A stretch of DNA of 64,000 bases from a virus. Lineage: Duplodnaviria; Caudoviricetes. The stretch covers positions 96,001 to 160,000 of IMG/VR virus record IMGVR_UViG_3300046820_001270; one strand, given 5' to 3'. Numbering within the stretch: position 1 is the stretch's first letter; the number at the start of each line of letters is the position of its first letter. This document shows, one piece after another, positions 21,481-58,221 of this stretch. The notes below the pieces were generated by a model that did not search any database, was not told where the DNA came from, and saw only the letters and a list, made by a program, of their open reading frames with translations. The position numbers were made by a program, and so were the translations under genes.

Positions 21481-22296
21481 ATGAGTGGATTAACAACAAT
21501 TAAATTAAGTAGTGAAGACCTTAAGAAAGAACAAGAACGCCAACGAAAAAGAGGTAGATTGATCTTTAATACCTTTAAAAAAGGTAAGGTTAAGGTTGTA
21601 ATTGGTCGATATGATGAAGACGGAACAGTTCCTGACATTATATTTCAATATCAAATACATGACGCACACTTTAGATCAATTGTAGATTACACTAACGGAG
21701 AAGTAATCTGTGTAATGGATTGTTATTATGATGATATAGATATTCTTAATGAAGACGGTAGTGAAATAACAGAAAAATTACCTCTTTGGTTAGTTTCGGA
21801 AATTGAGAACAAAATTGAAGATAAGTTTGGTGGTTTTAACATCGAACTCCGTTATATGCAACAATCAGACGGGAAAGGAAAGAAAAGTTTGGTTAATGAA
21901 GATGTAAGTGAACATCAGAAAATGATCAACAAGGTTAGGGTAATATATAAAGCACACAGAAACGGACATTATGATTTTAAGTACGGTCCTCAAAAAGACG
22001 AAATAAAACACGTAAGTTGGGTACTCCCACCTAAATTTAGTATTAAAATAAAAGAATATAGTCAAGAAGACAGTGAAAGATTTGGTTATGAAAATTACCC
22101 TATTTTGACGTTGAACACAGAAACTATTAATTTTATTACAGAAGACGGTAAACCTATTCAGAGTGGAGAGAAAATGGTCATTGGTTCAAAAATAACGAGT
22201 ATCTTTAAGAAACATAGAATAACCGTATATTGGACAGGAAATAAGAATACAACGGACGATTACACACAGATAGATATTACCCCAAAATCAAAATAA
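21481..22296 (+). CDS. tandem-module family protein (2 modules)
   Basis: KRGRLIFNTFKKG and LVNE...KVRVIYKAHRNG. Confidence 0.8.
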   Translation: MSGLTTIKLSSEDLKKEQERQRKRGRLIFNTFKKGKVKVVIGRYDEDGTVPDIIFQYQIHDAHFRSIVDYTNGEVICVMDCYYDDIDILNEDGSEITEKLPLWLVSEIENKIEDKFGGFNIELRYMQQSDGKGKKSLVNEDVSEHQKMINKVRVIYKAHRNGHYDFKYGPQKDEIKHVSWVLPPKFSIKIKEYSQEDSERFGYENYPILTLNTETINFITEDGKPIQSGEKMVIGSKITSIFKKHRITVYWTGNKNTTDDYTQIDITPKSK

Positions 22297-22333
22297 ATTT
22301 GGATATTCCAAATGGGGGTTGTATATTTGTTTC

Positions 22334-22510
22334 ATGAAAGTAAAAATAACAGTAAAATACCATATTGAAATTGGTAATGAAGTCATTGAGTGTGAATCAC
22401 TTGAACAGGCTGAACGTAAATTAAAACACATCTCAGAGGTTGAGAGATATCTTATCAAAACCGAATTAAAGGGAGATCAAATCGTTGCTCAGTATTTAAT
22501 AGGTCAATAA
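22334..22510 (+). CDS. hypothetical protein
   Basis: Start re-called after TATATTTG -7 box. Confidence 0.6.
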   Translation: MKVKITVKYHIEIGNEVIECESLEQAERKLKHISEVERYLIKTELKGDQIVAQYLIGQ

Positions 22511-22524
22511 GGTATTTATTATGA

Positions 22525-22848
22525 ATGAACAGAAAAGAGTATAGGAGACTATTACAGGACCCCAAATGGAAGATCAAGGCTTCCTTCATCAGGAAGAGAG
22601 ATAACCACTCCTGCGTCAGATGTGGGAAGAAATCACATAGATTACAGGTTCATCACACCAAATATGAAGATGGTTTAATGCCGTGGGAGTATGATAATGA
22701 TACGTTAGAGTCGTTATGTTCGGGTTGTCATAAGAAAGAACATAACATTAAACCTAAAAGGAGATTTACCCCGAGAAAGAAGAAAGAACCCAAATTACAA
22801 ACAAGGGTGATTAAGATTAAACCAATTGACGATAACTCTTGGAGTTAG
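22525..22848 (+). CDS. HNH endonuclease
   Basis: RDNHSCVRCG...LQVHH...LESLCSGCHKKEH. Confidence 0.88.
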   Translation: MNRKEYRRLLQDPKWKIKASFIRKRDNHSCVRCGKKSHRLQVHHTKYEDGLMPWEYDNDTLESLCSGCHKKEHNIKPKRRFTPRKKKEPKLQTRVIKIKPIDDNSWS

Positions 22849-22861
22849 ATATTTATATACA

Positions 22862-23587
22862 ATGAAGTTCATAGATTTAATAAAAGAAGACGAATATACA
22901 AGACAATACAAGAAAGCTCATACTATCTATAAAGCACTTAGAAAGGGTAAAGCAACTGTTTCGGTAAATGTAGCTTATACCGAAAGAAATGGAATTGAAT
23001 TACACACATTTGAATACATGTTACCAAAAGAGAATTATATAATAAATGTTACTAATTTGTATGGAAGTACCACGACACATATTCGTTGTGAAAAAATGGT
23101 AATAATCGGTAAAAAAATACCAATTATGGACACATTGATTATTGGTGCGGTTAGTAAAAGATTTTCAAAGGATTTTGGAATTGATTTAATTATTAATGAT
23201 GTTGAATATACTGAGGAAGGTGTTAGAAATGATGGTTTATTAAAAGAAGAACCAAACGAACGTGAATTGGAAATAGAAAAAGTTAAAACCAAAACAAAGA
23301 CTGTTTATAAGGCACTTAAAAAAGGAACTTTAAATGTTCGTTATGCACATGGACAACCGGATGTGAAATTTAAATATGAATTACCTGACGAATATAGAAT
23401 AAAAGTATTAGGGAGTACGACAGAAGGATTTAAATCATACATCAAATTAACATGTAATCATGTTAAAATTGAAACATTAGATGGTATTGAACGTGACGAC
23501 AACCAAAAATTTGGGATAGGTTTTCCGGCAATTAAACACAAATTCGGTTCTTTTGATATTGAAATGGATTGTCTTTTTGGTAGTTAA
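22862..23587 (+). CDS. tandem-module family protein (2 modules), class-B leader
   Basis: MKFIDLIKE; KAHTIYKALRKG; LLKE...KTKTVYKALKKG. Confidence 0.8.
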   Translation: MKFIDLIKEDEYTRQYKKAHTIYKALRKGKATVSVNVAYTERNGIELHTFEYMLPKENYIINVTNLYGSTTTHIRCEKMVIIGKKIPIMDTLIIGAVSKRFSKDFGIDLIINDVEYTEEGVRNDGLLKEEPNERELEIEKVKTKTKTVYKALKKGTLNVRYAHGQPDVKFKYELPDEYRIKVLGSTTEGFKSYIKLTCNHVKIETLDGIERDDNQKFGIGFPAIKHKFGSFDIEMDCLFGS

Positions 23588-23687
23588 CAATTCTTGTTTG
23601 GTTTTACCCAAATAAACTTTATGATGTCCAAAAAATTATTTAAATTAATAGTACTTATTTAAGATTAGACAAATACAATTATACATT

Positions 23688-23924
23688 ATGGATATTAATG
23701 AATTATATGAAAGATATATGACGGCGTATAAAATAGAAATCAGGGAATGTGAAACACCATATAGTGTTGATCTATTAAGAGATATAGATATGTTAGAAAA
23801 TTTAACTATCGATGAGTTTAAAGACAAATTAAAAAACCCAACGTTTAATAATAAATGGGGTGATGAGCCAAACAATTCAAGTAACTTTATGTACAACTGG
23901 ATTAGGGATAAGAGCGGTAAATAG
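23688..23924 (+). CDS. hypothetical protein
   Basis: ORF convergent with next gene. Confidence 0.6.
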   Translation: MDINELYERYMTAYKIEIRECETPYSVDLLRDIDMLENLTIDEFKDKLKNPTFNNKWGDEPNNSSNFMYNWIRDKSGK

Positions 23925-23927
23925 TTT

Positions 23928-25160
23928 TTATAATTTAACCCAAGTTCCGTTATGTTTTAAACGAAATTTTGTTGCTCTAAGAATAATGTTCAACCCAAAG
24001 TTGTTAAATTTTTTCTTAACAATATTAAGAATGTCCATTTTAATTGTTTGAATATTATTTAAATTTGGGTTTTCGTCACAGTTAATTTTAATTGATGGTA
24101 TTAAAACTTTGACATTGTAATTATTTTCAAATGGATCTGTCTCAACAATATATACATCACCTAAATCATAATCAAATGTGTATTTTTGTGGGTCAGTTGC
24201 ACCTCGATAAAATAATCTTATTGCATCAACCTCCATTGTTACCTTACCTTTCTTTAAAGCTTTAAAAACAGTTGGTGCTTTTTTAACAAGTGTTTCATGT
24301 TCGTTCTCATTCTCTTCTTTTACAATATGAGTTTCAGTATTTTTAAATGCATCTTTGTATTTGGTGAATATCATATCACAATTAGAATCAAAATTAATAA
24401 ATCTCATTTTAATTTTATGGCGAAACGATTCTAACAATTCAATTTGAACTGCACCATTTTTTGCTTTGAAATCGTATTCAATCTTTACATCTTCAATCGG
24501 AATAAAAAATGATACGGGTCGATTAAAAATGTTATTAAAATCTAATCTTATTCTAAATTTTTTTGGTAATTCGTAATCAGCAACAACCACAACCTGTTCT
24601 CCGTTATTAAATATTGGAGGTACTTTAACTTTAACTTTTCCTTTTCTAAAACTTTTGTAAACTAATTTGGACTTATTAATTATTCTTTGTTTTTCTTGTT
24701 CATCATCAACACTTTCATCAATCATATTTTCATATGCACTTGGAACGTTATGTTTTTTTCTAATACTAAATCTAATTTGTTCACCTTCGTCGAATGTACC
24801 CTTTAATGAATTATTAAATTTACGAGCAAGTTTTCTTAATATATCTTCTCTAATATCAATATCATCAGCAAGAGAAGGATATCTTTCACAGTTTATAGTT
24901 ATACCTGTTATTATCACTTCATAAGCTAACATTTGATTTCCTGACGTTAGATGATATGTGGTAGGTAGTTCATATGTGATAACAACATCTTTATCATCAA
25001 TTATTTCAAATCCAGTCCAAAATGGAACCATATCGGGGAGTAGATTACCAATCTTAAAACCACCTGTTCTTAGTGTCTTATACATAAGTTTAACCTTACG
25101 AGACACCTTACGGTAATCGTCACTTAACTCAGCTTCCCCCAAAATATCCACAAATTTCAT
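23928..25160 (-). CDS. tandem-module family protein (3 modules), class-B leader
   Basis: MKFVDILGE; KVKLMYKTLRTG; IDE...KSKLVYKSFRKG; VKE...KAPTVFKALKKG. Confidence 0.85.
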   Translation of the reverse strand: MKFVDILGEAELSDDYRKVSRKVKLMYKTLRTGGFKIGNLLPDMVPFWTGFEIIDDKDVVITYELPTTYHLTSGNQMLAYEVIITGITINCERYPSLADDIDIREDILRKLARKFNNSLKGTFDEGEQIRFSIRKKHNVPSAYENMIDESVDDEQEKQRIINKSKLVYKSFRKGKVKVKVPPIFNNGEQVVVVADYELPKKFRIRLDFNNIFNRPVSFFIPIEDVKIEYDFKAKNGAVQIELLESFRHKIKMRFINFDSNCDMIFTKYKDAFKNTETHIVKEENENEHETLVKKAPTVFKALKKGKVTMEVDAIRLFYRGATDPQKYTFDYDLGDVYIVETDPFENNYNVKVLIPSIKINCDENPNLNNIQTIKMDILNIVKKKFNNFGLNIILRATKFRLKHNGTWVKL

Positions 25161-25235
25161 ATCTTTATAAATATACCTGAAATTGTTTGGATATTATACT
25201 AAAAACTCTTATATTTGGGTATAAAACTATATATT

Positions 25236-25544
25236 ATGGCAATTGCAAAGAAAGCGGCTAAGAAAGCTGTACCAAAAGTGGTGGAACAACCAAAACAAAT
25301 CGTTTTAACCCAAGATCAGTATGATCAATTGGTTGGTTTTAAATGGGAGGTTAATTCAATTTCACATGAAATTAAAAGTGTTGTGGTTGATGATGATAAG
25401 AATGTTAGAGAGATTTCTTTTGATCTTGGAACTTTACAAGTTAGACTTAATAAACTATATGATGATCTAACTAAAATATCTGATGATGTTGATCCAGACC
25501 CATACGTTTGGGAAGATGATGACAACGATGATGATAACAATTAA
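25236..25544 (+). CDS. hypothetical protein, acidic C-terminus
   Basis: Start re-called at MAIAKKAAKK. Confidence 0.7.
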   Translation: MAIAKKAAKKAVPKVVEQPKQIVLTQDQYDQLVGFKWEVNSISHEIKSVVVDDDKNVREISFDLGTLQVRLNKLYDDLTKISDDVDPDPYVWEDDDNDDDNN

Positions 25545-25547
25545 GTT

Positions 25548-25874
25548 ATGCGTGATTTCAAATTTCTTGCCAAAAACGATATATCAAGTTATAACGGACA
25601 AATGTCTCGTGAGGCTATTGACTATCTATATGATTATAACAATCGTGTAAGGAGTCATGAGAGGACCACAACGATTGCGACATATAAAATGGTGGATTAT
25701 ACCTATGGTGATGGTGATATTGTTGCAGGAACCGTCAATGCATATCCATTAAATGCTTCGAATATAAGAATCACTTTTAGAATAAGAAACGGAGAGATTA
25801 CATCACACACCATAGATATTGACTATTGGAATACGATGGGACAATTAGTAAATGCATTAAGGAGGGAAGATTAG
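25548..25874 (+). CDS. FKFL-tag protein
   Basis: Starts MRDFKFLAK. Confidence 0.75.
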   Translation: MRDFKFLAKNDISSYNGQMSREAIDYLYDYNNRVRSHERTTTIATYKMVDYTYGDGDIVAGTVNAYPLNASNIRITFRIRNGEITSHTIDIDYWNTMGQLVNALRRED

Positions 25875-26347
25875 AGATTAGTTGGTCTTCCCGCACCTCT
25901 ATATGCCGAAATATACTTTGGTTCATTTAAACTACTAACCTTTACACCTTCGTATCTATTTGATGCGTGAACAAATAAAGACTCACCAATATAAGTTCCA
26001 CAGTGCCATCTACTTGGTGATTGTCTACTCCTAAAAAATAATAGATCACCAACCTGTAAACTATCCTTCTTAATTCGCGGAGTTGTTTCCCACTGCAACG
26101 AACAAGTATTCTCAATATTAATTTTAAAAACATCCTGAGCCAATCTTTTATTGAACTGAGAACAATCAATACCTTTCTCCGTTGATCCCCCTAACCTATA
26201 TGGTTTACGTAACCAATTGATTACAAATGTATTGAGAGTACTATCAACGGCAAAACGAGGGATTGAATCTAAATAAACCTTTTTAGTTTGTGATGTTCCT
26301 AATATTGAGATGAACATCAATAATGTAATAATTAAAAATTTCTTCAT
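25871..26347 (-). CDS. NlpC/P60 cell-wall peptidase with signal peptide
   Basis: WLRKPYRLGG...GIDCS; GDLLFF; WHCGTYIG...FVHAS; hydrophobic N-terminus. Confidence 0.92.
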   Translation of the reverse strand: MKKFLIITLLMFISILGTSQTKKVYLDSIPRFAVDSTLNTFVINWLRKPYRLGGSTEKGIDCSQFNKRLAQDVFKINIENTCSLQWETTPRIKKDSLQVGDLLFFRSRQSPSRWHCGTYIGESLFVHASNRYEGVKVSSLNEPKYISAYRGAGRPTNL

Positions 26348-26452
26348 AACTTATATTATACATAAAATATTTGAGAATAGAAAGGTAGGGGTATTTAATA
26401 TATTCACAAAAATATTGTATATTTGTTGTTGGGAATATTAAAAAATTATAAT

Positions 26453-27214
26453 ATGATGTATTTTAAAAAAATTGAAATAAATAATTTAAAAATTGTAGCA
26501 CCATTAAAATGTGGAACAAGATGGTTACATGAAAAATCGGAAAAATCATCATACATAAACATTGAAGATTTAAAGGAGGAAACGGATAGTGAAACTATAT
26601 TTTTATATAGAGAACCTAAAGATCATTTAATATCGGCATTACAAACAGATTATATATTAAATGAATGTGATTTAAATAAAACTTTAAATGATTTATTAAA
26701 TAATAGATCGACACATTGGCGTGGAGATATGTACGAATATACTCACATGGATTGGTGTTATAATAAGTTTAAAATGGTTAACTATTTGAATATTTGCGAT
26801 TTAATAGGTGATTACGATTTTGATAAAAAAAAATATGATTTCTCTAAAGAACCATATCTTTTTACGAAAGAAATGGTGTTAGATTTGGTACCGATTGACG
26901 TTAAAGAAGAATTATTTAAAATGGCGGACAATAATGAATATTGGTTAAAACAAATTCAAGAAAAAAATGATAAAATTGCCTCAAAAATTGTATTGGATAA
27001 ACTAAACGATACTATATTGGAAAATCAAAAAATAGATAAACTAAATCATATTATGTTGGAGTATCAAAAAGTAGATAAAAAAAATATATTTGATCTTGAA
27101 TCCGTAGTTTTAAATAAAGAATCAATAATTTTAAATTACGAATCGGTAATAAAAAAAAATTACATAATCATGGAAGATTATCGTAAAAATTATGTAAAAA
27201 AATCTTTATTATAG
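26453..27214 (+). CDS. hypothetical protein, weak sulfotransferase-like motif
   Basis: APLKCGTRW and FLYREPKDHLISAL resemble PAPS-binding motifs. Confidence 0.4.
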   Translation: MMYFKKIEINNLKIVAPLKCGTRWLHEKSEKSSYINIEDLKEETDSETIFLYREPKDHLISALQTDYILNECDLNKTLNDLLNNRSTHWRGDMYEYTHMDWCYNKFKMVNYLNICDLIGDYDFDKKKYDFSKEPYLFTKEMVLDLVPIDVKEELFKMADNNEYWLKQIQEKNDKIASKIVLDKLNDTILENQKIDKLNHIMLEYQKVDKKNIFDLESVVLNKESIILNYESVIKKNYIIMEDYRKNYVKKSLL

Positions 27215-27268
27215 ATTATTAAAAAATAGAGATATTTTGTATATTCACAAAGATATTGTATATTTGTT

Positions 27269-28715: not shown

Positions 28716-28719
28716 TGAT

Positions 28720-29464: not shown

Positions 29465-29465
29465 T

Positions 29466-30587: not shown

Positions 30588-30606
30588 AATAAAAAACAAA
30601 TAACCT

Positions 30607-34897: not shown

Positions 34898-36022
34898 ATG
34901 AAGTTTTTAGATCTAATAAACGAAGACGAACAATCCGAATGGAACAAATTGTTTAAGAAAACCCAATTGGTTTTTAAAACGTTGAGGAAGGGGAGAATAC
35001 GCACACATTCGAATGTGGTCTTTAGTTATGAAATACCAGAAGATAGTCATATAAGTGTTGCTAGTTCACATGGTAAGGATGACCTCACAGCCTATATTAT
35101 GTGTGAAAAAATTAAGATAAAAGAAGAATCTAAAGAATGTTCTCATGTGTCTTTTGGTAAGTTTGGTGAATTGATTAAAAGAAAGTTTGATCATTTTGGT
35201 ATAATGTTTATTTTTAACGTTTACCCTGAAGATATTGAGAAATACAAACACGAGACCATTAATGAAGTTTTAGACCATCAGGACGAAGAAAGTACAAACT
35301 TAACCGATGACCAATTAAAACAATTAAAGAGAGCTAAAACGGTATACAAAGCTTTAAAGAAAGGAAAGGCCACCTTTAATTTAGCATCTTCATTTGATGA
35401 ACCAGATGAACATACAATAAAATATGAATTAGGTGATCCTTATTATTATTGGATATATGTTGCAGGTACCAATACATTTAGAATAGAAATATCAAAAATT
35501 ACAGTTTATATTGATACTCGTGAATTCTACGAAAGGGCCATTAGTAAAGAAATAATTAAAGGAAGTTATAAAACGATGGAATGGATATTACTTCATAATC
35601 TAATTGCTCCACGTGTTAGAAAGAGATTTGGAAATAATGATATTGAGATAAGAATTGCCGATGCAGATTTAAAGTTTGAATATGTTGAACCACAACCCAT
35701 TAATGAGGACAAAGATAGAAGAATAAAAAGAGCACATACAATATACAAAGCACATAAAAAAGGTTTATTAAACAAAGGTGAACATGGTAATGTTAGATAT
35801 GAATTACCCGATGTATATGATGTTAGATTAAGATCATTAGATGATCAAATGATTATTGAGGTGGGATATGAGGGAGACGATAATGAGGTAAAGTTTTATT
35901 TTGGACCTAATGAAGATGGTAAGTATAAACTTACAAAACCAGGACCAAAATATTATGGACCATTTATAGAGAGATTATCTGATAAGTTTTTTGAACCATA
36001 CGATATAAAATTAATTTTTTAA
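34898..36022 (+). CDS. tandem-module family protein (3 modules), class-B leader
   Basis: MKFLDLINE; KTQLVFKTLRKG; INE...RAKTVYKALKKG; INE...RAHTIYKAHKKG. Confidence 0.85.
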   Translation: MKFLDLINEDEQSEWNKLFKKTQLVFKTLRKGRIRTHSNVVFSYEIPEDSHISVASSHGKDDLTAYIMCEKIKIKEESKECSHVSFGKFGELIKRKFDHFGIMFIFNVYPEDIEKYKHETINEVLDHQDEESTNLTDDQLKQLKRAKTVYKALKKGKATFNLASSFDEPDEHTIKYELGDPYYYWIYVAGTNTFRIEISKITVYIDTREFYERAISKEIIKGSYKTMEWILLHNLIAPRVRKRFGNNDIEIRIADADLKFEYVEPQPINEDKDRRIKRAHTIYKAHKKGLLNKGEHGNVRYELPDVYDVRLRSLDDQMIIEVGYEGDDNEVKFYFGPNEDGKYKLTKPGPKYYGPFIERLSDKFFEPYDIKLIF

Positions 36023-36738
36023 TGAAGTTATTGGATATCATATTAGAAGACGAGAATAAGGAAAAACTTATTAAGAAAGCCAAGACAATATACAAAGGTG
36101 TTAAGACCGGAGTTGTTCGTAAAGGTGTGTTCGGTAAAGTTGTATACGTACTCCCTGATGTATATGATGTTCAAATAGATATACATGATGAGATCTTTAT
36201 TAAGGTTGGAGGTAATAGAACAGAGAATGGAGTTAAATTCTATTATGTGGATGATACAGATGGTGAAATGAAACCATTAAGAGTAAATCCTACAGAATAT
36301 CAATTAAACATAAAAAGAATTGAAAACAAAAAATTTACACCATTCGGAATATATTTGTGGTATGAAGAAAGTGATAATTGGGAGAAACCTGAAGTTGTGA
36401 ATGAAAATGAAGATAGTGATCGTACAAGAAAGAGAGTTAAGAATGTTTATCATGCATTAAAGAAAGGGATTGTACACAGGAATGAAAGTGGTATAATATA
36501 TTACGAACTACCTGATGAATATGATTATAAGGAGAAAGGTTATGGAGATCCTCCTTTTCCTGTGGTGTTTGTGGGAAATCATCATCATGAAAATAGTATA
36601 AGGTTTTTCCAACAAGATTACAACACAAGTAAAGAAGATAGAAGAGAATTAGATATACCGGCATATGAATACAATACATTACTTGCTCGAATAGGTGTGT
36701 TGTTCGATAAATTTAATATAAGTTTCCAAAGATATTAA
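36022..36738 (+). CDS. tandem-module family protein (2 modules), class-B leader
   Basis: MKLLDIILE; KAKTIYKGVKTG; VNE...RVKNVYHALKKG. Confidence 0.85.
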   Translation: MKLLDIILEDENKEKLIKKAKTIYKGVKTGVVRKGVFGKVVYVLPDVYDVQIDIHDEIFIKVGGNRTENGVKFYYVDDTDGEMKPLRVNPTEYQLNIKRIENKKFTPFGIYLWYEESDNWEKPEVVNENEDSDRTRKRVKNVYHALKKGIVHRNESGIIYYELPDEYDYKEKGYGDPPFPVVFVGNHHHENSIRFFQQDYNTSKEDRRELDIPAYEYNTLLARIGVLFDKFNISFQRY

Positions 36739-36739
36739 T

Positions 36740-37144
36740 ATGAAACTATTAGATATAATAAACGAAAACGAAGATAAAAAAAGAAAGAAGATTAGGGCCG
36801 TATTTAAAGCACTTGATAAAAAGGTATTTCGTAAGGTTCACATACGTAAGATATTTTACGTTCTTCCCGATCATTATAAGGTTTTAGGGGACAATGAACC
36901 GGGACTTGACCAATACAAACGTAAAAGACGTTATGGTGATGACGTTATATTTGTTCAAGTGGGGCACGATGGTGAGAATAATCAGGTTAAGTTCTTCTAT
37001 ACAACAGAAGGGGAGGATAAAATAGAAAGGTATATACCAAATAATATTGATCAGTATAGTGCTAATTTATCATTTGTTAATGATAAATTCAAACCATTTA
37101 ATATACGAATGGTTTTTAAACGTCATAATGGTGAATGGGAATAA
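36740..37144 (+). CDS. tandem-module family protein (1 module), class-B leader
   Basis: MKLLDIINE; KIRAVFKALDKK. Confidence 0.8.
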   Translation: MKLLDIINENEDKKRKKIRAVFKALDKKVFRKVHIRKIFYVLPDHYKVLGDNEPGLDQYKRKRRYGDDVIFVQVGHDGENNQVKFFYTTEGEDKIERYIPNNIDQYSANLSFVNDKFKPFNIRMVFKRHNGEWE

Positions 37145-37349: not shown

Positions 37350-38468
37350 ATGAAGTTTATAGACACATTTACTGAGGACGATAGGAAGAAGTTAATCAAG
37401 AAGGCCAAGTTAGTCTTTTCTGTATTAAAGAAAGGAACAATTACCCGTTCAGATGGTGTGTCATTTAGTTACATACTCGGGGATAATATGAAACCAATCG
37501 TAGTAGATGGTGAGATAGAGATTTTTGCATTCATTTCCAAGATAATAGAAAAAACTTATTGTCCATTAAGTATACATGCGATTAAAGAATTAATTATTAA
37601 GAAATTCGAACATTTCAATATCAATGCAGAATTTTATAATACTGACAACACTCAGATAGAGAAATACCAAGGAAAGAAACCGTGGGAGAAGGACGAACTA
37701 AACGAAGAGGGAAGATTAGTTAAGAAGCAGGACCCAAATGAGGAAAAGAGGGTAAAAACCATTTTTAAAGCATTTAGAAAGGGAGTGATAAAGGTTCAAC
37801 ACCCAAGAACAAACGAGATCATCAAGTTTAGATATTATATAAATGATCCTGTATTTTTTACATGGGAATATTATAATATGATGGAACAACAACTTACCAT
37901 TATTACCAACAACTTCCCTGGTGAAGGTATAACCATTTACTGTGATGATAAAGATGTGGTAGACAAATGTACAAACGATATAGAATCCATATCAAAGAAC
38001 CCAACGGGTATCCATCTGAGGGAAATGTTTATGAATAAACTTAAAAGAAAATTCGACAATTTAGATGTTAGTTTTTATATTAATAAAAAAGGTATGAAGT
38101 TTGTTTTAGGTGAACCAACTGAACTAAACGAAGAGAAGGACAACAATCTTACCGAAAAGAACAGGAAGAAGATAGAACTTATCTATGGTTTATTTAAGAC
38201 GGGGAAGTATAAGGTAGATGATTTAATATACACATATGTTCTTCCCGATGACTACTGGACATCAAATGATGATGAATCGGGGGAACTTATTATTGTTCTT
38301 ACCATGAACCCACAACAGAGGATGAAACTATATGCAACGATGGATAATGGTAATCTAAGTATAAGTCCCGGAACGGAAGTGGAAACACAATACCATCATT
38401 TACACAATAATGCAAAGGAAAGGATTAAAAAGAAGTTTGCAAGGTTTGGTATAGATATAATATTTTAG
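37350..38468 (+). CDS. tandem-module family protein (3 modules), class-B leader
   Basis: MKFIDTFTE; KAKLVFSVLKKG; LNE...RVKTIFKAFRKG; LNE...KIELIYGLFKTG. Confidence 0.85.
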   Translation: MKFIDTFTEDDRKKLIKKAKLVFSVLKKGTITRSDGVSFSYILGDNMKPIVVDGEIEIFAFISKIIEKTYCPLSIHAIKELIIKKFEHFNINAEFYNTDNTQIEKYQGKKPWEKDELNEEGRLVKKQDPNEEKRVKTIFKAFRKGVIKVQHPRTNEIIKFRYYINDPVFFTWEYYNMMEQQLTIITNNFPGEGITIYCDDKDVVDKCTNDIESISKNPTGIHLREMFMNKLKRKFDNLDVSFYINKKGMKFVLGEPTELNEEKDNNLTEKNRKKIELIYGLFKTGKYKVDDLIYTYVLPDDYWTSNDDESGELIIVLTMNPQQRMKLYATMDNGNLSISPGTEVETQYHHLHNNAKERIKKKFARFGIDIIF

Positions 38469-41253: not shown

Positions 41254-42162
41254 TTAATATCCTATGTCGAAGTTCTTAAAACGTTTCTTTAGATATTCAC
41301 GGAATTCTTTTTGTTCCTCGTCAGACAGAGGTGATTCCTCGGGGGAGTTCTTTTTACCATCAACAATTTCCCACCCAAAGTTACAGGTGATTTCGAAGTT
41401 AGGATGTAATACCTTATCGGCTCTATTGTAGTTAAACTTATCTTGATGTATCACAAACCCCTTGGACCAATCATGTGGTTCGAACAATTCATATGTATGA
41501 CCTCTCCATGTTCCTCTCTTCAGTGCGTTATACACAGACCTGGCTTTCTTTACCAACTTGGACATTGCCAGAGAATATCCGTCTGAGAAGGTTGGAAGAT
41601 CCCCTTGGGTTAAACTATACGTATTTAACAGATGTGATCTTGAGAACATGATACCACCGAACTTTTGTGGGGACAGAAGTTTCAAGTTATACGTCGGAGT
41701 ATCCATGTAGTCCCTTAGGTGAAGTATACCTTGACCAGGATGGACAGATATATTCTGTAATTTCAAATGATAACAATCAATTAGATCAGGAGGATAGATC
41801 GATGGTTTATTCATTAGATCAGGATTAATCTTAAGTAGACTATCGACGAAGTCAGCTACAGATACCTGTAGGATATTCAAAGGGATCTCAGGATTTGGGT
41901 TCATGTTTGGCATGTAGTCAATTCTAAGATTGATCTCCCCAAGATACTTCTCCTCATTATACCTAACAAAGGTGTATGGTATTTGGTCCAATTGAACTGA
42001 ATAATGTATCTCACCTTCAGGTATTTGGAACTTCCTATAGAACATATGTTCCTTCTTAAACTTCTGCACAGTCTGCACGAATTTTTCACTGGCAAACTTA
42101 AACTTGTCATTAGGGATATTATCCTGTTCCTCCGTTAATCCTTTTAATTTACTTAGTCTCAT
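41254..42162 (-). CDS. tandem-module family protein (one clear and one divergent module)
   Basis: MRLSKLKGLTE leader; KKARSVYNALKRG. Confidence 0.8.
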   Translation of the reverse strand: MRLSKLKGLTEEQDNIPNDKFKFASEKFVQTVQKFKKEHMFYRKFQIPEGEIHYSVQLDQIPYTFVRYNEEKYLGEINLRIDYMPNMNPNPEIPLNILQVSVADFVDSLLKINPDLMNKPSIYPPDLIDCYHLKLQNISVHPGQGILHLRDYMDTPTYNLKLLSPQKFGGIMFSRSHLLNTYSLTQGDLPTFSDGYSLAMSKLVKKARSVYNALKRGTWRGHTYELFEPHDWSKGFVIHQDKFNYNRADKVLHPNFEITCNFGWEIVDGKKNSPEESPLSDEEQKEFREYLKKRFKNFDIGY

Positions 42163-42282: not shown

Positions 42283-42540
42283 TCAGGATAGTGGTTCTAC
42301 AGATACAGTTCGTCTATTGTTCTTACCAGTCTTGAAGGTCATTATACCATCTGCTGTAGCAAATAGTGTATGATCAGAACCCATACCGACATTGCTGCCA
42401 GGATAGTACTGTGTTCCTCTCTGGCGGATGAGGATGTTACCAGCTCGTGCTGACTGTCCACCGTGGATCTTTAATCCTAATCTTTTGCTGTGTGAATCAC
42501 GACCGTTCTTTACGGACCCTTCACCTTTCTTGTGTGCCAT
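42283..42540 (-). CDS. rpmA: 50S ribosomal protein bL27
   Basis: [22 protein letters not shown]...[10 protein letters not shown]...[12 protein letters not shown], full-length L27 signature. Confidence 0.97.
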
Positions 42541-51538: not shown

Positions 51539-51829
51539 CTATAAACTTATTTCAACTTCTTTGGTATCGTCGTGGTCAAAGTCCCAACTCCAATCTTCTA
51601 CGAAAGGTCGTGTACTAATAAAGTAAGTATTATCTTCTTCTTCATTTAAGATAACCATACCATAAGTTTTTTTCTCACATTCAAATACATTAGTATCCAT
51701 TAATTTTTCTAATACACTAACACATTCTTCTTCAGAAGTATTAGTATCATTTACCATATCCCAATTTTGAACAAACTCAATTTGTCCTAAAGAAACTCCG
51801 AACTCAAAAAATTTAACATTGTTTTTCAT
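51539..51829 (-). CDS. hypothetical acidic protein
   Basis: Own promoter and terminator. Confidence 0.75.
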   Translation of the reverse strand: MKNNVKFFEFGVSLGQIEFVQNWDMVNDTNTSEEECVSVLEKLMDTNVFECEKKTYGMVILNEEEDNTYFISTRPFVEDWSWDFDHDDTKEVEISL

Positions 51830-52477: not shown

Positions 52478-52828
52478 TTAATAGTTATAATCTACGAAAT
52501 TATGAGGGTTATAATTTCTTCTCACGGGAGTTCTTTGTCTATGACTAACGGGAGTGTATGACAAAGGTCGGTCTTGGTTGAAGGACTTTTCCATTCGTTG
52601 TTCAATAGTAGGAACTTCGTAGTCCATTTCAGGTGGAATACCATTCTTCACTTGCCAAACCATTTTTTGGATTACATTCAAGGTCTCCTCAACGAAAACA
52701 ATACCATTCGTTGTGGTTATCTTTGTTTGGACTAATCCACTTTTCATATCAGTATCCATATAGATTGATACGATTTGGTCTACATTTACTAATGTGGGTG
52801 TACCACGATGTGTCAGTTTAATTAACAT
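52478..52828 (-). CDS. FlbD-like small protein
   Basis: MLIKLT....LVNVDQIVSI...TKITTTNG..FVEETL.VI pattern. Confidence 0.55.
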   Translation of the reverse strand: MLIKLTHRGTPTLVNVDQIVSIYMDTDMKSGLVQTKITTTNGIVFVEETLNVIQKMVWQVKNGIPPEMDYEVPTIEQRMEKSFNQDRPLSYTPVSHRQRTPVRRNYNPHNFVDYNY

Positions 52829-52994
52829 TTGATTTATTTTTAATGATTACTAATTCCATTCTTGTAGGTATGACAATTGCCAAATTACATTCATCACAAC
52901 ATTCGTCATCTTCATTTTGGGTTTCAATAGGACTTGGGTTATTACCATAACCCTCGACTTCATTACCACATAAACAACATTTAAATTTCTCCAT
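52818..52994 (-). CDS. small Cys-rich (Zn-binding-like) protein
   Basis: MEKFKCCLCGNEVEGYGNNP...ECCDECN; missed by ORF track. Confidence 0.6.
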   Translation of the reverse strand: MEKFKCCLCGNEVEGYGNNPSPIETQNEDDECCDECNLAIVIPTRMELVIIKNKSNVN

Positions 52995-53000
52995 TTTAAT

Positions 53001-53213
53001 TTAATTTAATACTTCAAAAATATCTTTACCAATAATAAGACCTAAGGTACGACCATTATCCCATTTAACATTGACAACATCAAAACCAACATTGTAAACA
53101 ACTCCTTCACGACCAACCAAAATTGGTTGTGGGTCATCTTCCATTGGTTCAATAAGTCTAACTCTTTTACCCATTAATATTTGTGGGTTTACAAGAACAT
53201 CATTTACTATCAT
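53001..53213 (-). CDS. DUF4314-like protein
   Basis: GKRVRLI.PMEDDPQPI..G..GVV...VKWDNGRTLGLI.G.D. Confidence 0.75.
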   Translation of the reverse strand: MIVNDVLVNPQILMGKRVRLIEPMEDDPQPILVGREGVVYNVGFDVVNVKWDNGRTLGLIIGKDIFEVLN

Positions 53214-53214
53214 A

Positions 53215-53364
53215 TTATTTAATTTTAGAGATTTTTAATTTGATACCATAAACAACTAAATTGATTAACGATAAAACGAATAGACAAACACAAATACTCC
53301 AAAAGATAAAGATAAACTTTTGAACTCCCTCTAATTGATTGTAGATTTCTTGATACATAAACAT
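53215..53364 (-). CDS. small membrane peptide
   Basis: MFMYQEIYNQLEGVQKFIFIFWSICVCLFVLSLINLVVYGIKLKISKIK; promoter upstream. Confidence 0.55.
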   Translation of the reverse strand: MFMYQEIYNQLEGVQKFIFIFWSICVCLFVLSLINLVVYGIKLKISKIK

Positions 53365-53829
53365 TTATTTATTTGATTAACTAATATTACACGAAGGTAA
53401 TACAAAGTTTTGATATCACAAATTTATTTAGAATATTTTTTATTTTTTTTCATACCTGTCGTCCACACTCGAATATTGATTGGCATGTATGACAAAACCC
53501 CCAACATCCTGATCGTCGTCCTAAACTTGTTTGGCATATACGATAATATCCGTAGATATCCGAAACCATATCCGAAATTGCCACACAACATTACAAAACA
53601 AGCAGACTCAAGGGGGTTTGTATGACAAAGTTTGCCAAACAACAATTTTCCCGTCGGAGAACCTCCTCTTCAAATTTATTTTGTTAAAGGATTTGCCAAA
53701 CCATATTAGAGATGACGATGACATCTCTTGGTGTATGACAATTGCCAAACAACAATTCCTGGAAGGAGACGAATATGGTCAAAAAAAACCCCCACCTTTC
53801 GGTGAGGGTCGGTTAGTGGGGGAACTAAC

Positions 53830-54387
53830 CTAATCAATAATTGTGTACTCTTGTTTGAGTATTTTAATTCTCTTGATATTGTCTAAACTTAATACCTTAT
53901 AATTTAAGGTATTCTCTAAACCATTTTGATACTTTGAATAGTCGGTCTTTGTATCAATCATATATTGTTGGAACAATAACTTTTCAATACTATTACCCTC
54001 AATCAAATATCTTGTGTCAAGATAACTACTATTGTGGTCTTGATATCTAAAGTAGAATTTAGTCGGGTCGGACTTTAAAAATACTAAAGATTTAGAAACC
54101 AACTGATAAGGACTTTCTTTTTTATCCTCATTCACAATAGGGGTAATTCCCTCTTTCTTATACTTTCGTTCTAATTGTTCATCATAATCAAAACCCGTTT
54201 GGATATTTGATAACTTTTGTTCAATCAAAACCTTATCGTAATAAGGGTTAGGATTTTGTTTACCACTTGTCTTGAAGTCAAGGTACTTGTTCATCTTAAC
54301 TTTTTTTAATGTTGTCAATCCCACATTAGGGACAAAGATATCTATACCTGATAGTATATCTTTTAGTTCAGTTTTAATAATGTTCAT
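53830..54387 (-). CDS. hypothetical phage protein
   Basis: ORF with own promoter (TAACTTTG) and terminator. Confidence 0.8.
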   Translation of the reverse strand: MNIIKTELKDILSGIDIFVPNVGLTTLKKVKMNKYLDFKTSGKQNPNPYYDKVLIEQKLSNIQTGFDYDEQLERKYKKEGITPIVNEDKKESPYQLVSKSLVFLKSDPTKFYFRYQDHNSSYLDTRYLIEGNSIEKLLFQQYMIDTKTDYSKYQNGLENTLNYKVLSLDNIKRIKILKQEYTIID

Positions 54388-54559
54388 ATCTTATTGTTTG
54401 TTCCCACAAAGTTAATGTATATACCAATACAAAGTTAGAATATACAAATAAAGTTATCCACATTCTATTGTTAATAACTTGGGGGTTCACCTTCGGGAAC
54501 TAATGTGGTTTGGCAAACTCTTGAGAACGAACCTTGATGGGATACTCCATTATTGTTTG

Positions 54560-54790
54560 GCAGGTCGGGTAAGGTATTGATAGTCAAAGGGTTAGGGGTA
54601 GGTAGGACTGATAGGGGTGGTGTACCCCCTCCCCCCTCCCGTATCCCCCCTTTATATAGTGTTTTAGGGGGGTCTATAACAGGGGGTCAATGCCACGACT
54701 GAAATTTTTCCAGAAAAAAAGTGAAAAAAGGGTCTTTACCCCTAAAAGTGATTTAAAAATTTTCCAGAATTTTTTGGAAGTAATGAGTAT
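54560..54790. other. G-tract/C-tract element at a divergent strand switch (candidate origin or genome terminus)
   Basis: GGGTTAGGGGTAGGTAGG...GGGGTGG, then CCCCCTCCCCCCTCCCGTATCCCCCC, then G6 and G5 runs; DnaA box at 54454. Confidence 0.55.
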
Positions 54791-54811
54791 TTATATAACA
54801 AAGAACATCAT

Positions 54812-55294
54812 ATGAGTAAAAAAGTAATACGTTTAACGGAATCAGAATTAAAAAGATACATTAATAAAGTTGTGTCTGAACAAGCATCACCAGCACCTAC
54901 AGGTGGTGGACCAAATTTCCAACAATCAACACCAAAAGTACCTGTTGTTGGGGGAACTGCGGCCGAAAAGTTGAAAGAGTTGGTTGGTAAGGCAGTATTA
55001 TGTAGAGCCTCAGATAATAGTGCAATTTACAAATGCGTGATCAGAAGTGTTAGTCAGGGTAAAAATAATGTTGTTTATTTAATGGTAAGTTGTGAAAATG
55101 ACCCTAAGGTTCAGTTTATTAGATATATAGCAGATGGTGATAAAGGATTAGTTGTGGGTGGTAGTACTATGAATTCTACACCTGTAACATGTAAAGGTTT
55201 ATCAGATTGGTTAAATACAAATATTAAACCATATATGGAAAGTTATGACTTCGCTAAAAGTGGAGGTTCTAACATGAACGCAGATTTTTCATAA
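54812..55294 (+). CDS. hypothetical protein with class-A leader
   Basis: MSKKVIRLTESELKRYINKVVSEQ; TATTTATA upstream. Confidence 0.8.
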   Translation: MSKKVIRLTESELKRYINKVVSEQASPAPTGGGPNFQQSTPKVPVVGGTAAEKLKELVGKAVLCRASDNSAIYKCVIRSVSQGKNNVVYLMVSCENDPKVQFIRYIADGDKGLVVGGSTMNSTPVTCKGLSDWLNTNIKPYMESYDFAKSGGSNMNADFS

Positions 55295-55319
55295 ATGATT
55301 TGATGAAAAGATATAAAAA

Positions 55320-55347
55320 AACCCTCCTATACGGAGGGTTTTTTTAT
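55320..55347 (+). terminator. intrinsic terminator ACCCTCC-N-GGAGGGT (also about 59541 and 63369)
   Basis: Hairpin plus T-tract; three similar copies. Confidence 0.8.
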
Positions 55348-55373
55348 TTATATGGAAACACTATTTATATACA

Positions 55374-56084
55374 ATGAAAATAATCATATCTGAATCACAG
55401 TTAAGAAATATTATTAATGAGAGTGAGATAGATCGTATCTTGGACAAAATCAATGAGAAGGGAATGAAATCCCTTACTCCACAAGAAAAACGTATTCTTC
55501 AAGGTAAAGAGAAAGAAAAGGAGGAAGATCCTACGGGTTTAAACAAGGATCAACAAAAATACCAAGTAATGTTTTATATTGATGTTCCCCGTTTCGAAAG
55601 TTTTGATAATGACGTAAAGGAGATTAAACATATCCTAACTATGGGAGGAATAGATTGTGATGTGGATTATCACATTAGTTTCCCTTTCAGTTATTATATA
55701 GTTTATTTTGAACATGAGTTCCAAGGTAATAAGATTCTTTCTTTATTGAGTGATGACAGTTATGTTCCCGTTGGTTCACCAACGGAGACTGGAAAAGAGG
55801 AGATCGAGTTAAAAAGAAAGGTAATCGATAGTCTTATTAAACAAAACGCAGATTTGGTATTGAGACCTAATCATGAATATAAACTATCTAAGTTTTTGGA
55901 AATTAAACGTATTGAAGATATTATCCAATCCGTTGGTATTCCTTATCATCGTCATGCAACTACGTCCGATGATGACGGCACATATATTGTTGCTTTGGGT
56001 GTAACTAAATTTATGGTCAATAAGTTAATAGTAAGTTTGGAGAATTATGGGTATGAGGTTTCAAGATACGATAACGCATATTAG
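55374..56084 (+). CDS. hypothetical protein with class-A leader
   Basis: MKIIISESQLRNIINE; IDRILDKINEKGMKSLTPQEK motif. Confidence 0.8.
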   Translation: MKIIISESQLRNIINESEIDRILDKINEKGMKSLTPQEKRILQGKEKEKEEDPTGLNKDQQKYQVMFYIDVPRFESFDNDVKEIKHILTMGGIDCDVDYHISFPFSYYIVYFEHEFQGNKILSLLSDDSYVPVGSPTETGKEEIELKRKVIDSLIKQNADLVLRPNHEYKLSKFLEIKRIEDIIQSVGIPYHRHATTSDDDGTYIVALGVTKFMVNKLIVSLENYGYEVSRYDNAY

Positions 56085-56178
56085 AAATATATTTCCAATT
56101 CCTTTAAATAACCCTATATATCGGGAGACAATATCCCTATATTAGAAATATAGTTCCAATTATGAGTATTTATATCAT

Positions 56179-56385
56179 ATGAAAATCATCCTTACAGAAT
56201 CTCAGTTAGAGAAAGTTATTAATAAAACCCATAAGGTTAGATACTTTGAGGGTGAGGAGTATGATATCCCCGAACAAATTGATTGGTTAATCATGCAGAA
56301 AGAGTTTATCTACTTGGGACAAGGATCAGGACATAAGTTAAAGTTAATTAACAACATTATACATAATCTACAGAAGCTACAATAA
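56179..56385 (+). CDS. hypothetical protein with class-A leader
   Basis: MKIILTESQL. Confidence 0.75.
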   Translation: MKIILTESQLEKVINKTHKVRYFEGEEYDIPEQIDWLIMQKEFIYLGQGSGHKLKLINNIIHNLQKLQ

Positions 56386-56386
56386 G

Positions 56387-56902
56387 ATGAGAGTTATCAT
56401 AACAGAACAACAATTAAAGAGTATCATTAAAGGTCAACAGAAAGGTGCAATACTAATTGGTGGTTTGGATGATAGAACGGACAAAGACGGAAAACTTATC
56501 GATAAAACAATTGACCAACAAATATCCCTATTAAAAACTGCAAGTGGGTTCAGTAATATCATAGGTCTTAGATATAGTACCTCAGATGGTGATATAATGA
56601 AAACCATATTAAATAACCCTAATTTTCCTGTTGTATTATTCAGTGCAGGTTGTCAGAAGGCTGACGTGGTTTTAAATACTAATGGTGTTAACCCTAATAA
56701 AGTATTCCTTATACAACCATGGGCTGCAAGTAAAAAAAGAATGGATTATTATAACGGATTATCCATGCCAAAGAACCAAATATATGTCGGTAAATTTTCA
56801 AGTACCGGTAATGGTATACGTGGTGCAACCCGTTGTCCCGAAGGAATGGATCATTGGGGTTCCCTTCCCGCAATCGGTGGAATGGTTTTAAAATTGAGAT
56901 AA
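56387..56902 (+). CDS. class-A leader protein, possible minimal alpha/beta-hydrolase
   Basis: MRVIITEQQL; VVLFSAG nucleophile-elbow-like; C-terminal DHW. Confidence 0.45.
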   Translation: MRVIITEQQLKSIIKGQQKGAILIGGLDDRTDKDGKLIDKTIDQQISLLKTASGFSNIIGLRYSTSDGDIMKTILNNPNFPVVLFSAGCQKADVVLNTNGVNPNKVFLIQPWAASKKRMDYYNGLSMPKNQIYVGKFSSTGNGIRGATRCPEGMDHWGSLPAIGGMVLKLR

Positions 56903-57015
56903 TACATAAAGATACCTCGGGTTTGAAGACCCGACTTAGGACCGGGACTAGTTACATAGTACCGTTGGGGCACGAATTCGCTACTCGTGTCCTTTTTTTA
57001 ATATATTTATATAAC

Positions 57016-57738
57016 ATGAAACTTATTATTACCGAACAACAATTAAAAAGTATCGTTAAAGAACAGGGAATGGGTTGGGATTATACCAGTAAAACCGAAT
57101 GGGAAAGATATTTGGAGATTAGCGATGACAAATATCATGAAACATATCTTCACGCAACAAATCAAGGTCCGGGTGACTTACCTAAGGGTAAAGCCGTAAT
57201 GATTCCATGTTATTTTTATGATAACGATAAAGGTAACTACCATGAAGATAAAAACTGTAAAAAGATATTAAATTATTCATCCTCAGATACTTTGGCGATT
57301 TATAAAAACGGTCGTGTAACTGTTAATGATAAAACAACCGGTAAAATGAAAAAGAAGGGTACATTGAATTTATTGGATAATGATCATATTAGAATTGATT
57401 GGGACGGTGGAGGTTCATTGGAGAAAAAGAGAGATTATAATAAATTATCGAAAATTGATTCCCCTAAGAATTCCGATACAATATGTGCAACCTCATTGGA
57501 TCAGTTGAAGAAAGGTAGTGGTAAAGTTTTACAGAAAGGTTGTAAATCAGAAACTGTTAAAGAGTTACAAAAAATGTTGGGTATGGAACAAAAATATCAT
57601 ACAGGATTTTTTGGTGATATCACAAAAGCTAAGGTTATTGAATATCAGAAAACACATAAAGACGTTAATGGTGTGAAATTGGTACAAGATGGTATTGTTG
57701 GTGAGAAAACATATAACTCATTAAAATCTAACAAATAA
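57016..57738 (+). CDS. class-A leader protein with C-terminal peptidoglycan-binding domain
   Basis: LQKGCKSETVKELQKML...FFGDITKAKVIEYQK...DGIVGEKTYNSL. Confidence 0.8.
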   Translation: MKLIITEQQLKSIVKEQGMGWDYTSKTEWERYLEISDDKYHETYLHATNQGPGDLPKGKAVMIPCYFYDNDKGNYHEDKNCKKILNYSSSDTLAIYKNGRVTVNDKTTGKMKKKGTLNLLDNDHIRIDWDGGGSLEKKRDYNKLSKIDSPKNSDTICATSLDQLKKGSGKVLQKGCKSETVKELQKMLGMEQKYHTGFFGDITKAKVIEYQKTHKDVNGVKLVQDGIVGEKTYNSLKSNK

Positions 57739-57780
57739 TACCACCATAGGAGATCTTGGTATATAATATATTTATACATA

Positions 57781-58221
57781 ATGAAACTAATCGACCTGTT
57801 AACTGAGGATACTAATGAACCAAGAGTTGTGTATTTTAATACTCCACATGGTTATAATGGTTCACCAGAAGATCATAAGATGATTAAGAAGATGATAAAT
57901 GTCTATAAGGCCCTGTCTAAGGGTCGTGGCTTGGTTCAGATATATCAGGGTGATAATTACCCTCCCCTTGATGTATCCTACGAATTACCCCCTTTAAACA
58001 CCGTTGCAATCCTAATTGACTATCCCAGTAAGAAAGCACTTAAAAATGGTGGTGAGATTGATTATACGTTTGATGTTGTTGGTAAGGTGAAATATACCCT
58101 TCATAACTTTGAAACACAATATGATACCGACATTGATAGATTTATGATGCATAAGGGACATGAAATATCATTTGTCTATAAAAAGAGATTTGAGAACTTT
58201 GGTATTAATATCAGTTCTTAA
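57781..58221 (+). CDS. tandem-module family protein (1 module), class-B leader
   Basis: MKLIDLLTE; KKMINVYKALSKG. Confidence 0.8.
   Translation: MKLIDLLTEDTNEPRVVYFNTPHGYNGSPEDHKMIKKMINVYKALSKGRGLVQIYQGDNYPPLDVSYELPPLNTVAILIDYPSKKALKNGGEIDYTFDVVGKVKYTLHNFETQYDTDIDRFMMHKGHEISFVYKKRFENFGINISS

Follow-up and report, generated by a model that had tools for sequence, protein, structure and literature searches.

Nine genes of an uncultured freshwater phage probably encode capsid-targeted polyproteins from which the prohead protease releases internal head proteins. The genes lie within a window of 64,000 nucleotides on a 334-kb contig (Ga0451736_0000008) with a G+C content of about 30%. Together they hold 18 copies of one module (2+2+3+3+2+1+3+1+1 for genes A to I), a number on which a motif regex, a MAFFT alignment and a profile HMM built from 143 modules agree. 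An earlier note, made from the letters of the DNA, had described a family of about 18 modules, with one to three in each of nine ORFs: all nine ORFs are present where it had placed them and the HMM finds exactly 18 modules. Neither in the remainder of the window nor in the 75 kb downstream did the HMM find any further module (139 kb of the 334-kb contig were searched). The genes, their cut sites and the elements in front of them are:

21481..22296, plus strand: gene A; two modules with LVNE between them (Glu codon 21898-21900); TATTTATA upstream, with 5 nt from its end to the ATG
22850, plus strand: promoter-like TATTTATA of gene B
22862..23587, plus strand: gene B; leader MKFIDLIKE; two modules; site LLKE (Glu codon 23246-23248)
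23928..25160, minus strand: gene C; leader MKFVDILGE; three modules; sites MIDE (24714-24716) and IVKE (24315-24317)
25173, minus strand: promoter-like TATTTATA of gene C
34886, plus strand: promoter-like TATTTATA of gene D
34898..36022, plus strand: gene D; leader MKFLDLINE; three modules; sites TINE (35264-35266) and PINE (35705-35707)
36022..36738, plus strand: gene E; leader MKLLDIILE; two modules; site VVNE (36403-36405)
36740..37144, plus strand: gene F; leader MKLLDIINE; one module
37338, plus strand: TATTTAT upstream of gene G
37350..38468, plus strand: gene G; leader MKFIDTFTE; three modules; two ELNE sites (37704-37706 and 38130-38132)
41254..42162, minus strand: gene H; variant leader MRLSKLKGLTE; about 190 aa of unrelated N-terminal sequence followed by one C-terminal module
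42174, minus strand: promoter-like TATTTATA of gene H
57769, plus strand: promoter-like TATTTATA of gene I
57781..58221, plus strand: gene I; leader MKLIDLLTE; a spacer of about 30 aa; one module
58338-59528 and 59600-62050, plus strand: two nuclease-like genes with the leaders MKLIDIIFE and MKLLDIILE on unrelated cargo

Genes B and G start at the ATGs at 22862 and 37350, respectively; longer TTG/ATG ORFs from a mechanical list were rejected. Genes D, E and F form an operon with D as the first gene, and the start of E overlaps the stop of D.

Seven of the nine genes open with the leader M-K-[FL]-x-D-x-x-x-E. A leader of this kind had been described in the earlier note; it does not fit gene A, whose atypical N-terminus (MSGLTTIKLSSE, ending …KLSSE) has no match to [ILV]-x-E, and is replaced by a variant in gene H. 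The two nuclease-like genes share the 9-residue leader on unrelated cargo, which shows the leader to be a portable tag. Among the relatives of the family, 111 of 150 start with MK[FLI], mostly within the consensus M-K-[FL]-[LI]-D-[IL]-[IL]-N-E, which has the same N-E ending as the linkers between modules; some relatives carry the phage's second leader class instead.

All nine internal junctions of the window contain [ILV]-x-E (LVNE, LLKE, MIDE, IVKE, TINE, PINE, VVNE, ELNE and ELNE), exactly as had been read before. For statistics we used about 150 independent relatives, which are cluster representatives at 50% identity: [ILVM]xE is present in 133 of 133 linkers (mean 73 and maximum 91 in shuffled sequences) and [ILVM]NE in 109 of 133 (shuffled mean 9.6, maximum 19). 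Per 100 aa, linkers contain 3.1 copies of the motif, compared with 0.11 for module bodies and 0.19 for the remaining ORFs of the phage, which corresponds to a 16- to 30-fold enrichment in linkers over other protein sequence. The pattern of linker sites is beyond chance. The short [ILVM]xE is itself frequent, with 1.8 occurrences per 100 aa of other ORFs, and copies of it are also found inside the modules, where folding would have to shield them from cutting. Synonymous codons vary at the sites, indicating that conservation acts at the protein level.

The contig encodes a T4-type head cassette with TerL, Portal_T4, Peptidase_S77, a scaffold protein and Gp23. The protease (L010:16623-17306) matches PF03420 (Peptidase_S77) with an E-value of 1.8e-21 and is flanked by Portal_T4, scaffold and Gp23; it is 33% identical to T4 gp21 and has kept the ELNHP and G-[IV]-S-S-R-G blocks. 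Maturation of T4 gp23 takes off exactly 65 residues (PMC9546572): the capsid protein of the freshwater phage has I-N-E60|A in the same alignment column as the T4 gp23 cut site L-T-E65|A, and in two related phages this column is filled by V-S-E|A and L-K-E|A. The scaffold protein has three [ILM]-N-E sites.

An alternative is that the chains are never cut and are beads-on-a-string repeat proteins (decoration, fibre-like or cytoplasmic), in which [IL]-N-E is conserved in the linker for structure or interaction. Conserved linkers are a common feature of tandem-repeat proteins, and the motif has only a few residues. We nevertheless consider this decidedly unlikely: the motif of the linkers is also the end of the leader and the maturation site of the capsid protein, and its Glu is kept in 133 of 133 linkers. 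The predicted structures point in the same direction. In the AlphaFold (AF2) model of full-length E, pLDDT falls below 50 in the linker WEKPEVVNE (residues 120-128) and nowhere else, which places the motif in a predicted disordered segment, and the modules do not pack against each other; pTM drops to 0.54. Module E1, modelled alone, folds on its own with a pLDDT of 91.6 and a pTM of 0.81. The models suggest that the modules are stable, autonomously folding alpha/beta domains.

The same module is found in about 190 metagenomic cluster representatives, with one to six modules per protein, and both the copy number and the order of modules differ between relatives. The relative with six modules (P0007) is encoded on a 5.9-kb contig, and its context is uninformative. 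For 52 modules in first position there is an internal counterpart with at least 45% identity; these pairs are 52% identical directly past the Glu, compared with 5% ahead of the motif. Module B2 has a stand-alone relative (P0075) with a leader in place of the upstream module and the switch lies exactly at the Glu; stand-alone or first-position relatives exist for modules G2 and G3, too. Judged from these sequences, the boundary of module shuffling is exactly at the Glu. It could partly come from recombination at a conserved motif rather than from cleavage. The existence of single-module genes, with the leader replacing the upstream module precisely at this residue, also speaks against proteins that are never cut.

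By sequence comparison the modules constitute a new domain family. Against Pfam and PHROG, the nine proteins returned noise only, and a Pfam scan of the 143 modules returned no recurrent family and no effector domain. PF12699, the giant-phage head paralog family A, was unmatched in the nine proteins and in the 143 modules. Searches of 50,697 phage records by megablast and by tblastn with the gene D protein did not find the family, and a single-protein search of IMG/VR found no relative. The module was also absent, by profile search, from the Flavobacterium phage immuto and from the 484-kb uncultured phage LR756508, which are nearest by capsid protein, an empty result that weighs little. Structural searches gave a similar picture: Foldseek found nothing convincing in PDB, BFVD and AFDB clusters (best E-values 0.02-0.06), and VIA-align against 48,161 chains reached a best Z of 5.7, with a best Z of 7-8 being typical for models without clear match. 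The only match with a TM above 0.5 was an all-viral Atlas cluster that possibly consists of relatives of the same family. A protein-atlas language model gave SRA-like scores of 0.82-0.88, which is below the 0.9 level; SRA, AspBHI_N and ScoMcrA had no Pfam match in the 143 modules and there was no SRA chain among the structural matches.

A further possibility is that the modules are targeted and cut as proposed but are architectural, either as parts of a core or inner body that give order to the inside of the prohead or to the packed 334-kb DNA, or as filler destined for degradation and expulsion. The first helix is rich in Lys in every module, and the lack of effector-like domains in the Pfam and PHROG scans also fits with such a role. 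However, the modules are stable and well folded in the models, in contrast to scaffold proteins that end up as peptides, and the net charge of the mature pieces is not consistently basic (pI 5.2-9.6). Moreover, the divergence within one genome (14-42% identity to module E1) and the variable copy number and order suit accessory cargo better than fixed architecture. We regard an architectural role as rather unlikely.

TATTTAT is present just upstream of seven of the nine family genes and likewise upstream of the terL, portal, protease and scaffold genes; in these genes it ends 4-8 nt ahead of the ATG. Given this shared upstream motif, the nine genes are probably late genes. With so short a distance the first codons could matter for initiation, and the conserved N-terminus might serve the translation of near-leaderless late mRNAs, or some other sorting to membrane or secretion, instead of capsid targeting. 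We judge this very improbable: leader codons vary freely between synonyms, the operon-internal genes E and F retain the leader, and the same tripeptide is found at internal junctions, a long way from the 5' end of any mRNA. Furthermore, judged from the sequence, an acidic leader of nine residues with no hydrophobic core does not resemble a Sec or Tat signal.

In the capsid-targeting model that we favour, the 9-residue leader M-K-[FL]-[LI]-D-[IL]-[IL]-N-E would bring each precursor into the core of the assembling prohead; gene H would enter via its variant leader and gene A (MSGLTTIKLSSE) is off-pattern. Once the shell is closed, the gp21-type serine protease (Peptidase_S77) would make one cut behind the leader's Glu and one behind the Glu in every exposed linker site ([ILV]-x-E, mostly [IL]-N-E), and free about 18 separate proteins of 12-17 kDa with one new alpha/beta fold. 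The module of gene H (HMM E-value 8.9e-10) is not separated by any site from the N-terminal region, and this gene would therefore yield a single product of about 34 kDa. The tandem layout would allow one leader to load two to three cargo modules (up to six in relatives) in a fixed ratio. T4 internal proteins remain with the packaged DNA and accompany it into the host; the freed modules would do the same. The earlier note had already suggested leader-tagged polyproteins. In silico there is now strong support for chains with leaders that a T4-like prohead protease would cut behind the Glu of [ILV]-x-E: the gp21 homologue, I-N-E|A in the capsid protein, the disordered linkers, the autonomous fold and the boundary at the Glu. 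That the modules are in fact cleaved, packaged and ejected is what we infer from this. A role in anti-defence or host takeover is speculative, as the only grounds for it are the analogy with T4 IPI* and the diversity of the family.

The capsid-targeting leader of T4 and its processing by gp21 are textbook knowledge. T4 gp21 cuts after the Glu in L/I-X-E, a change of this Glu to Asp blocks the cut, and a leader of ten residues is enough for capsid targeting (PMC9026906). Like IPI, IPII, IPIII and Alt of T4, the proteins of the freshwater phage have a short M-K leader that ends on hydrophobic-x-Glu (MKTYQEFIAE in T4 IPII/IPIII, MKFIDLINE here), with a conserved tag ahead of diverse, non-conserved cargo (PMC3012670, PMC9026906), and both phages have a gp21-family protease and a homologous cut site in the capsid protein. 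In contrast to T4, the P2 position of the site is strongly Asn, and the nine proteins have no sequence similarity to T4 internal proteins (no PHROG or Pfam match). T-even internal proteins are described as basic (PMC9026906); the inconsistent charge of the mature pieces here (pI 5.2-9.6) counts against the model. T4 internal proteins are single units that lose only the leader (PMC9958956), whereas here one expanded domain family is arranged with two to six units per precursor and internal cut sites. T4 gp22, gp67 and gp68 also have multiple gp21 sites per polypeptide, but are broken down into small peptides, which then leave the head (PMC9958956), while the pieces predicted here are autonomous folded domains.

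The giant phages phiKZ, 201phi2-1 and SPN3US have large, copy-number-variable families of head-internal paralogs, matured by a gp21-related protease with cleavage behind Glu (PMC5694885, PMC9026906), features that are predicted for the freshwater phage. Their sites are S/A-X-E or A-X-E, however, their propeptides often exceed 100 residues and their families are unrelated (for example pfam12699); here, there is no Pfam family, the leader is short and T4-like, and the precursors are tandems of the same fold. Polyvalent proteins of phages and conjugative elements (Iyer et al. 2017, PMC5512222) likewise have several domains and are predicted to accompany the DNA on its way into the new host; some undergo proteolytic processing, and there is extensive shuffling of their domains. 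They differ in combining distinct, recognisable effector domains, often with a peptidase of their own, whereas the family described here has one repeated domain with no Pfam effector, and its linkers would be processed by the prohead protease.

The family is new, and so is the polyprotein layout of a T4 internal-protein system: in the literature cited here, leader and gp21 processing are described for single cargo proteins only, and the same logic is here extended to polyproteins. A wider reading, which we put forward tentatively and hold to be somewhat short of an even chance, is that of a true polyprotein strategy, in which one 9-residue tag carries up to six modules of a relative-less fold that the protease would release as a reshuffled, hypervariable arsenal injected with the DNA; tag and [IL]-N-E would then be a portable and programmable packaging-and-release system for jumbo T4-type phages. 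The relatives, about 190 sequence clusters, point to a whole lineage of uncultured freshwater phages. If the capsid-targeted polyprotein model is true, one tag delivers several cargo units that are then separated by the head protease, and the polyprotein layout joins the known ways of capsid cargo loading in tailed phages. The modules would be a large new family, probably injected and with a fold without relatives, and thus candidates for host takeover or counter-defence. The phages would have a compact grammar of tag and linker to load and release multiple proteins inside their heads, and a sequence rule, [IL]-N-E in disordered segments, would make it possible to predict from metagenomes alone what cargo the virions of this lineage carry.

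The nine window ORFs that the earlier note had described as carrying tandem modules (genes A to I) are all present, and their translations have one module of about 100-140 residues in common. The first helix of the module is Lys-rich (K-x-x-K-K-x-K-x-[VI]-[YF]-K-A-L-K-K-G); Y-x-L-P-D-x-Y is its strand motif, and I-x-x-K-F-x-x-F-x-I lies at the C-terminus. The estimate of about 18 copies agrees with an HMM built from 143 modules, which gives 18, as 2, 2, 3, 3, 2, 1, 3, 1 and 1 across genes A to I, and detects none in the rest of the window or in the 75 kb that follow it on the contig. The nine internal junctions are also as reported: LVNE, LLKE, MIDE, IVKE, TINE, PINE, VVNE, ELNE and ELNE. As the leader, a short N-terminal sequence ending in Glu, M-K-[FL]-x-D-x-x-x-E is found in seven genes, while gene A (MSGLTTIKLSSE) falls outside this pattern and gene H starts with MRLSKLKGLTE. 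Further observations on gene H and on the ribosomal protein gene next to it are:

Window 41254-42162, minus strand: gene H; residues 12-200 are about 190 N-terminal residues ahead of the single module, from which no cut site separates them; this part has no match to the module HMM or to any Pfam family, and residues 25-50, approximately, bear a loose likeness to the module start.
Window 42283-42540, minus strand: ribosomal protein L27 gene (PF01016), adjoining gene H; a TATTTAT lies 25 nt ahead of the L27 start.

Scans of the family proteins found the module in neither Pfam nor PHROGs, and searches of 50,697 phage records gave no match among sequenced phages. When 1.84 billion cluster representatives were searched with a profile (E ≤ 0.001), 190 proteins with one to six modules each were identified; the relatives examined are all metagenomic and annotated as "hypothetical proteins". 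They are at most 50% identical to one another, and the motifs can be tested on them fairly independently. An MK[FLI] start is present in 111 of 150 relatives, most commonly as M-K-[FL]-[LI]-D-[IL]-[IL]-N-E, and every scorable linker between modules (133/133) contains [ILVM]-x-E. The stricter [ILVM]-N-E occurs in 109 of the 133 linkers (per-linker shuffling: mean 9.6, never more than 19), at a density per 100 residues of 3.1 in linkers, compared with 0.11 within module bodies and 0.19 across the other ORFs of the phage. The codons of the sites differ synonymously, so it is the protein that is constrained. That these are simply repeat proteins that stay uncleaved, with up to six modules in one chain, appears less likely than processing at such sites. 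One distant member (P0023) lies on another freshwater metagenome contig (L016) with a gene neighbourhood as around genes A-C:

Window 17212-20724, plus strand: BKACE enzyme, hexapeptide transferase and aminotransferase-like genes, directly upstream of genes A-C.
L016:6250-9761: the syntenic set on the contig with P0023.

With the 143-module alignment as input, the first module of gene E alone is predicted by AlphaFold2 with a mean pLDDT of 91.6 and a pTM of 0.81, as a helix, six strands, a helix and a strand, followed by an unstructured C-terminal linker. The model of full-length gene E has two confident modules, and the sole stretch with pLDDT below 50 is W-E-K-P-E-V-V-N-E (residues 120-128), with the Glu of the predicted site as its last residue; the mutual placement of the two modules is not confident, because the pTM falls to 0.54. 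Obligate multi-domain folding, which the earlier note had held to speak against processing, is thus not seen in silico: the module folds alone and the linker is disordered. Foldseek searches of PDB, BFVD and AFDB clusters returned no convincing fold relative (best E 0.02-0.06), and the best matches of an exhaustive structural aligner (Z up to 5.7) were to generic two-layer alpha/beta domains, rated as background. A language-model lead to SRA-like domains had a score below 0.9, and other searches did not back it.

The window belongs to a 334,429-bp contig (JGI metagenome 3300043419) that has a T4-type head cassette about 70 kb beyond the window, in the order TerL, Portal_T4, two small proteins, Peptidase_S77, scaffold (426 residues, very acidic) and Gp23-family capsid protein. 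Its capsid protein is closest to those of a 484-kb uncultured phage (LR756508), Flavobacterium phage immuto, a Microcystis phage and Rhodothermus phage RM378. The Peptidase_S77 is 33% identical to T4 gp21 and retains the E-L-N-H-P and G-[IV]-S-S-R-G blocks, which we take to be the sites of the catalytic His and Ser. Further genes in and near the cassette, on contig piece L010, are:

L010:15126-15872 and 16159-16584, plus strand: the two small proteins between portal and protease genes, at the place of gp67 and gp68 in T4; the one of 248 residues is rich in [LIT]-x-E motifs.
L010:15865-16056, minus strand: ribosomal protein S21 gene (PF01165), on the opposite strand between portal and protease genes, flanked by the two small proteins.
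L010:2971-4983 (minus), 5162-5518 (plus) and 769-1839 (minus), jointly: ClpB-like AAA+ chaperone, HSP20 small heat-shock protein and T4-type RNA ligase genes.

T4 gp21 cleaves after Glu in L/I-X-E (PMC9026906) and takes 65 residues off gp23 (PMC9546572); residue 65 is the last of F-L-T-E in the T4 record. In the capsid protein alignment, the T4 cut-site column reads I-N-E|A here, V-S-E|A in immuto, L-K-E|A in LR756508 and L-T-E|A in T4; at the site homologous to this maturation cut, the phage's own capsid protein therefore carries the linker motif. The scaffold has three further [ILM]-N-E sites.

In T4, ten residues are enough for capsid targeting, the final ones directing processing (PMC9026906). 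The leader described here has the same build as that of T4 IPII and IPIII (MKTYQEFIAE) and is one residue shorter. It is portable in two ways: nuclease-like genes carry it, and some module relatives have a second leader class instead. The nuclease-like genes, which have the family's 9-residue leader and near-identical upstream DNA, are possibly packaged nucleases or selfish elements borrowing the tag:

Window 58338-59528, plus strand: DUF723/HNH-type nuclease gene.
Window 59600-62050, plus strand: DUF723/HNH-type nuclease gene.

The second class is longer (M-K-[IV]-I-L-T-E-S-Q-L … [ILV]-x-E, then usually Q) and precedes unrelated cargo on many late genes as well as the modules of P0115, P0122, P0127, P0128 and P0143:

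Window 8441, 54812, 55374, 56179, 57016, 62096 and 63426: second leader class.
Beyond the window (numbering continued) 67882, 70126, 75299 (minus), 89533 and 91703: second leader class.

A role of the leader other than targeting is the less likely reading. The strongest comparative result comes from module positions: 52 first-position modules have an internal counterpart in another protein that is at least 45% identical (for example B2, the second module of gene B, and P0075; G3 and P0081; the second module of P0002 and the first of P0001). In these pairs the tail just after the Glu is 52% identical and the sequence before the motif 5%, with a leader on one side and the end of the preceding module on the other. 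The similarity boundary lies at the Glu, and the evolutionarily moved unit therefore begins exactly at the predicted new N-terminus.

Seven family genes have a TATTTAT(A) that ends 5-6 nt ahead of the ATG; genes E and F are downstream of D in one operon. TATTTAT, a putative promoter motif, also stands before terL and the genes for portal, protease and scaffold, which fits co-expression of the family with head genes. Over the window and contig pieces L003-L010, 139 kb in all, the element has 59 ORF-linked copies, and many start codons have it at a distance of 4-8 nt upstream; such spacing implies that the presumed late mRNAs have very short 5' leaders or none.

Capsid-targeting leaders, L/I-X-E processing and variable internal proteins are already known, as are the paralog families that giant phages have among their head proteins (PMC9026906, PMC5694885) and the concept that multi-domain proteins can be delivered together with DNA (PMC5512222). 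To judge from the literature searched, the module domain family is new, and so are its confinement to one lineage of uncultured freshwater jumbo phages of T4 type and the polyprotein layout, with protease sites between folded cargo units of the same fold. The earlier note had suggested an anti-defence function; nothing in the evidence gathered points to a target of the modules, which are not uniformly basic, and the main rival reading is that their role is architectural. In their divergence and shuffling the modules resemble the variable T-even internal-protein loci that are linked to restriction evasion (PMC3012670). We consider it likely that the family consists of capsid-targeted polyproteins: the precursor would dock in the prohead core via its leader, the S77 protease would then remove the leader and cut at each exposed linker, and the freed modules of 12-17 kDa would be retained in the head and leave together with the DNA. 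Thanks to the tandem layout, one tag would be able to load several cargo units.
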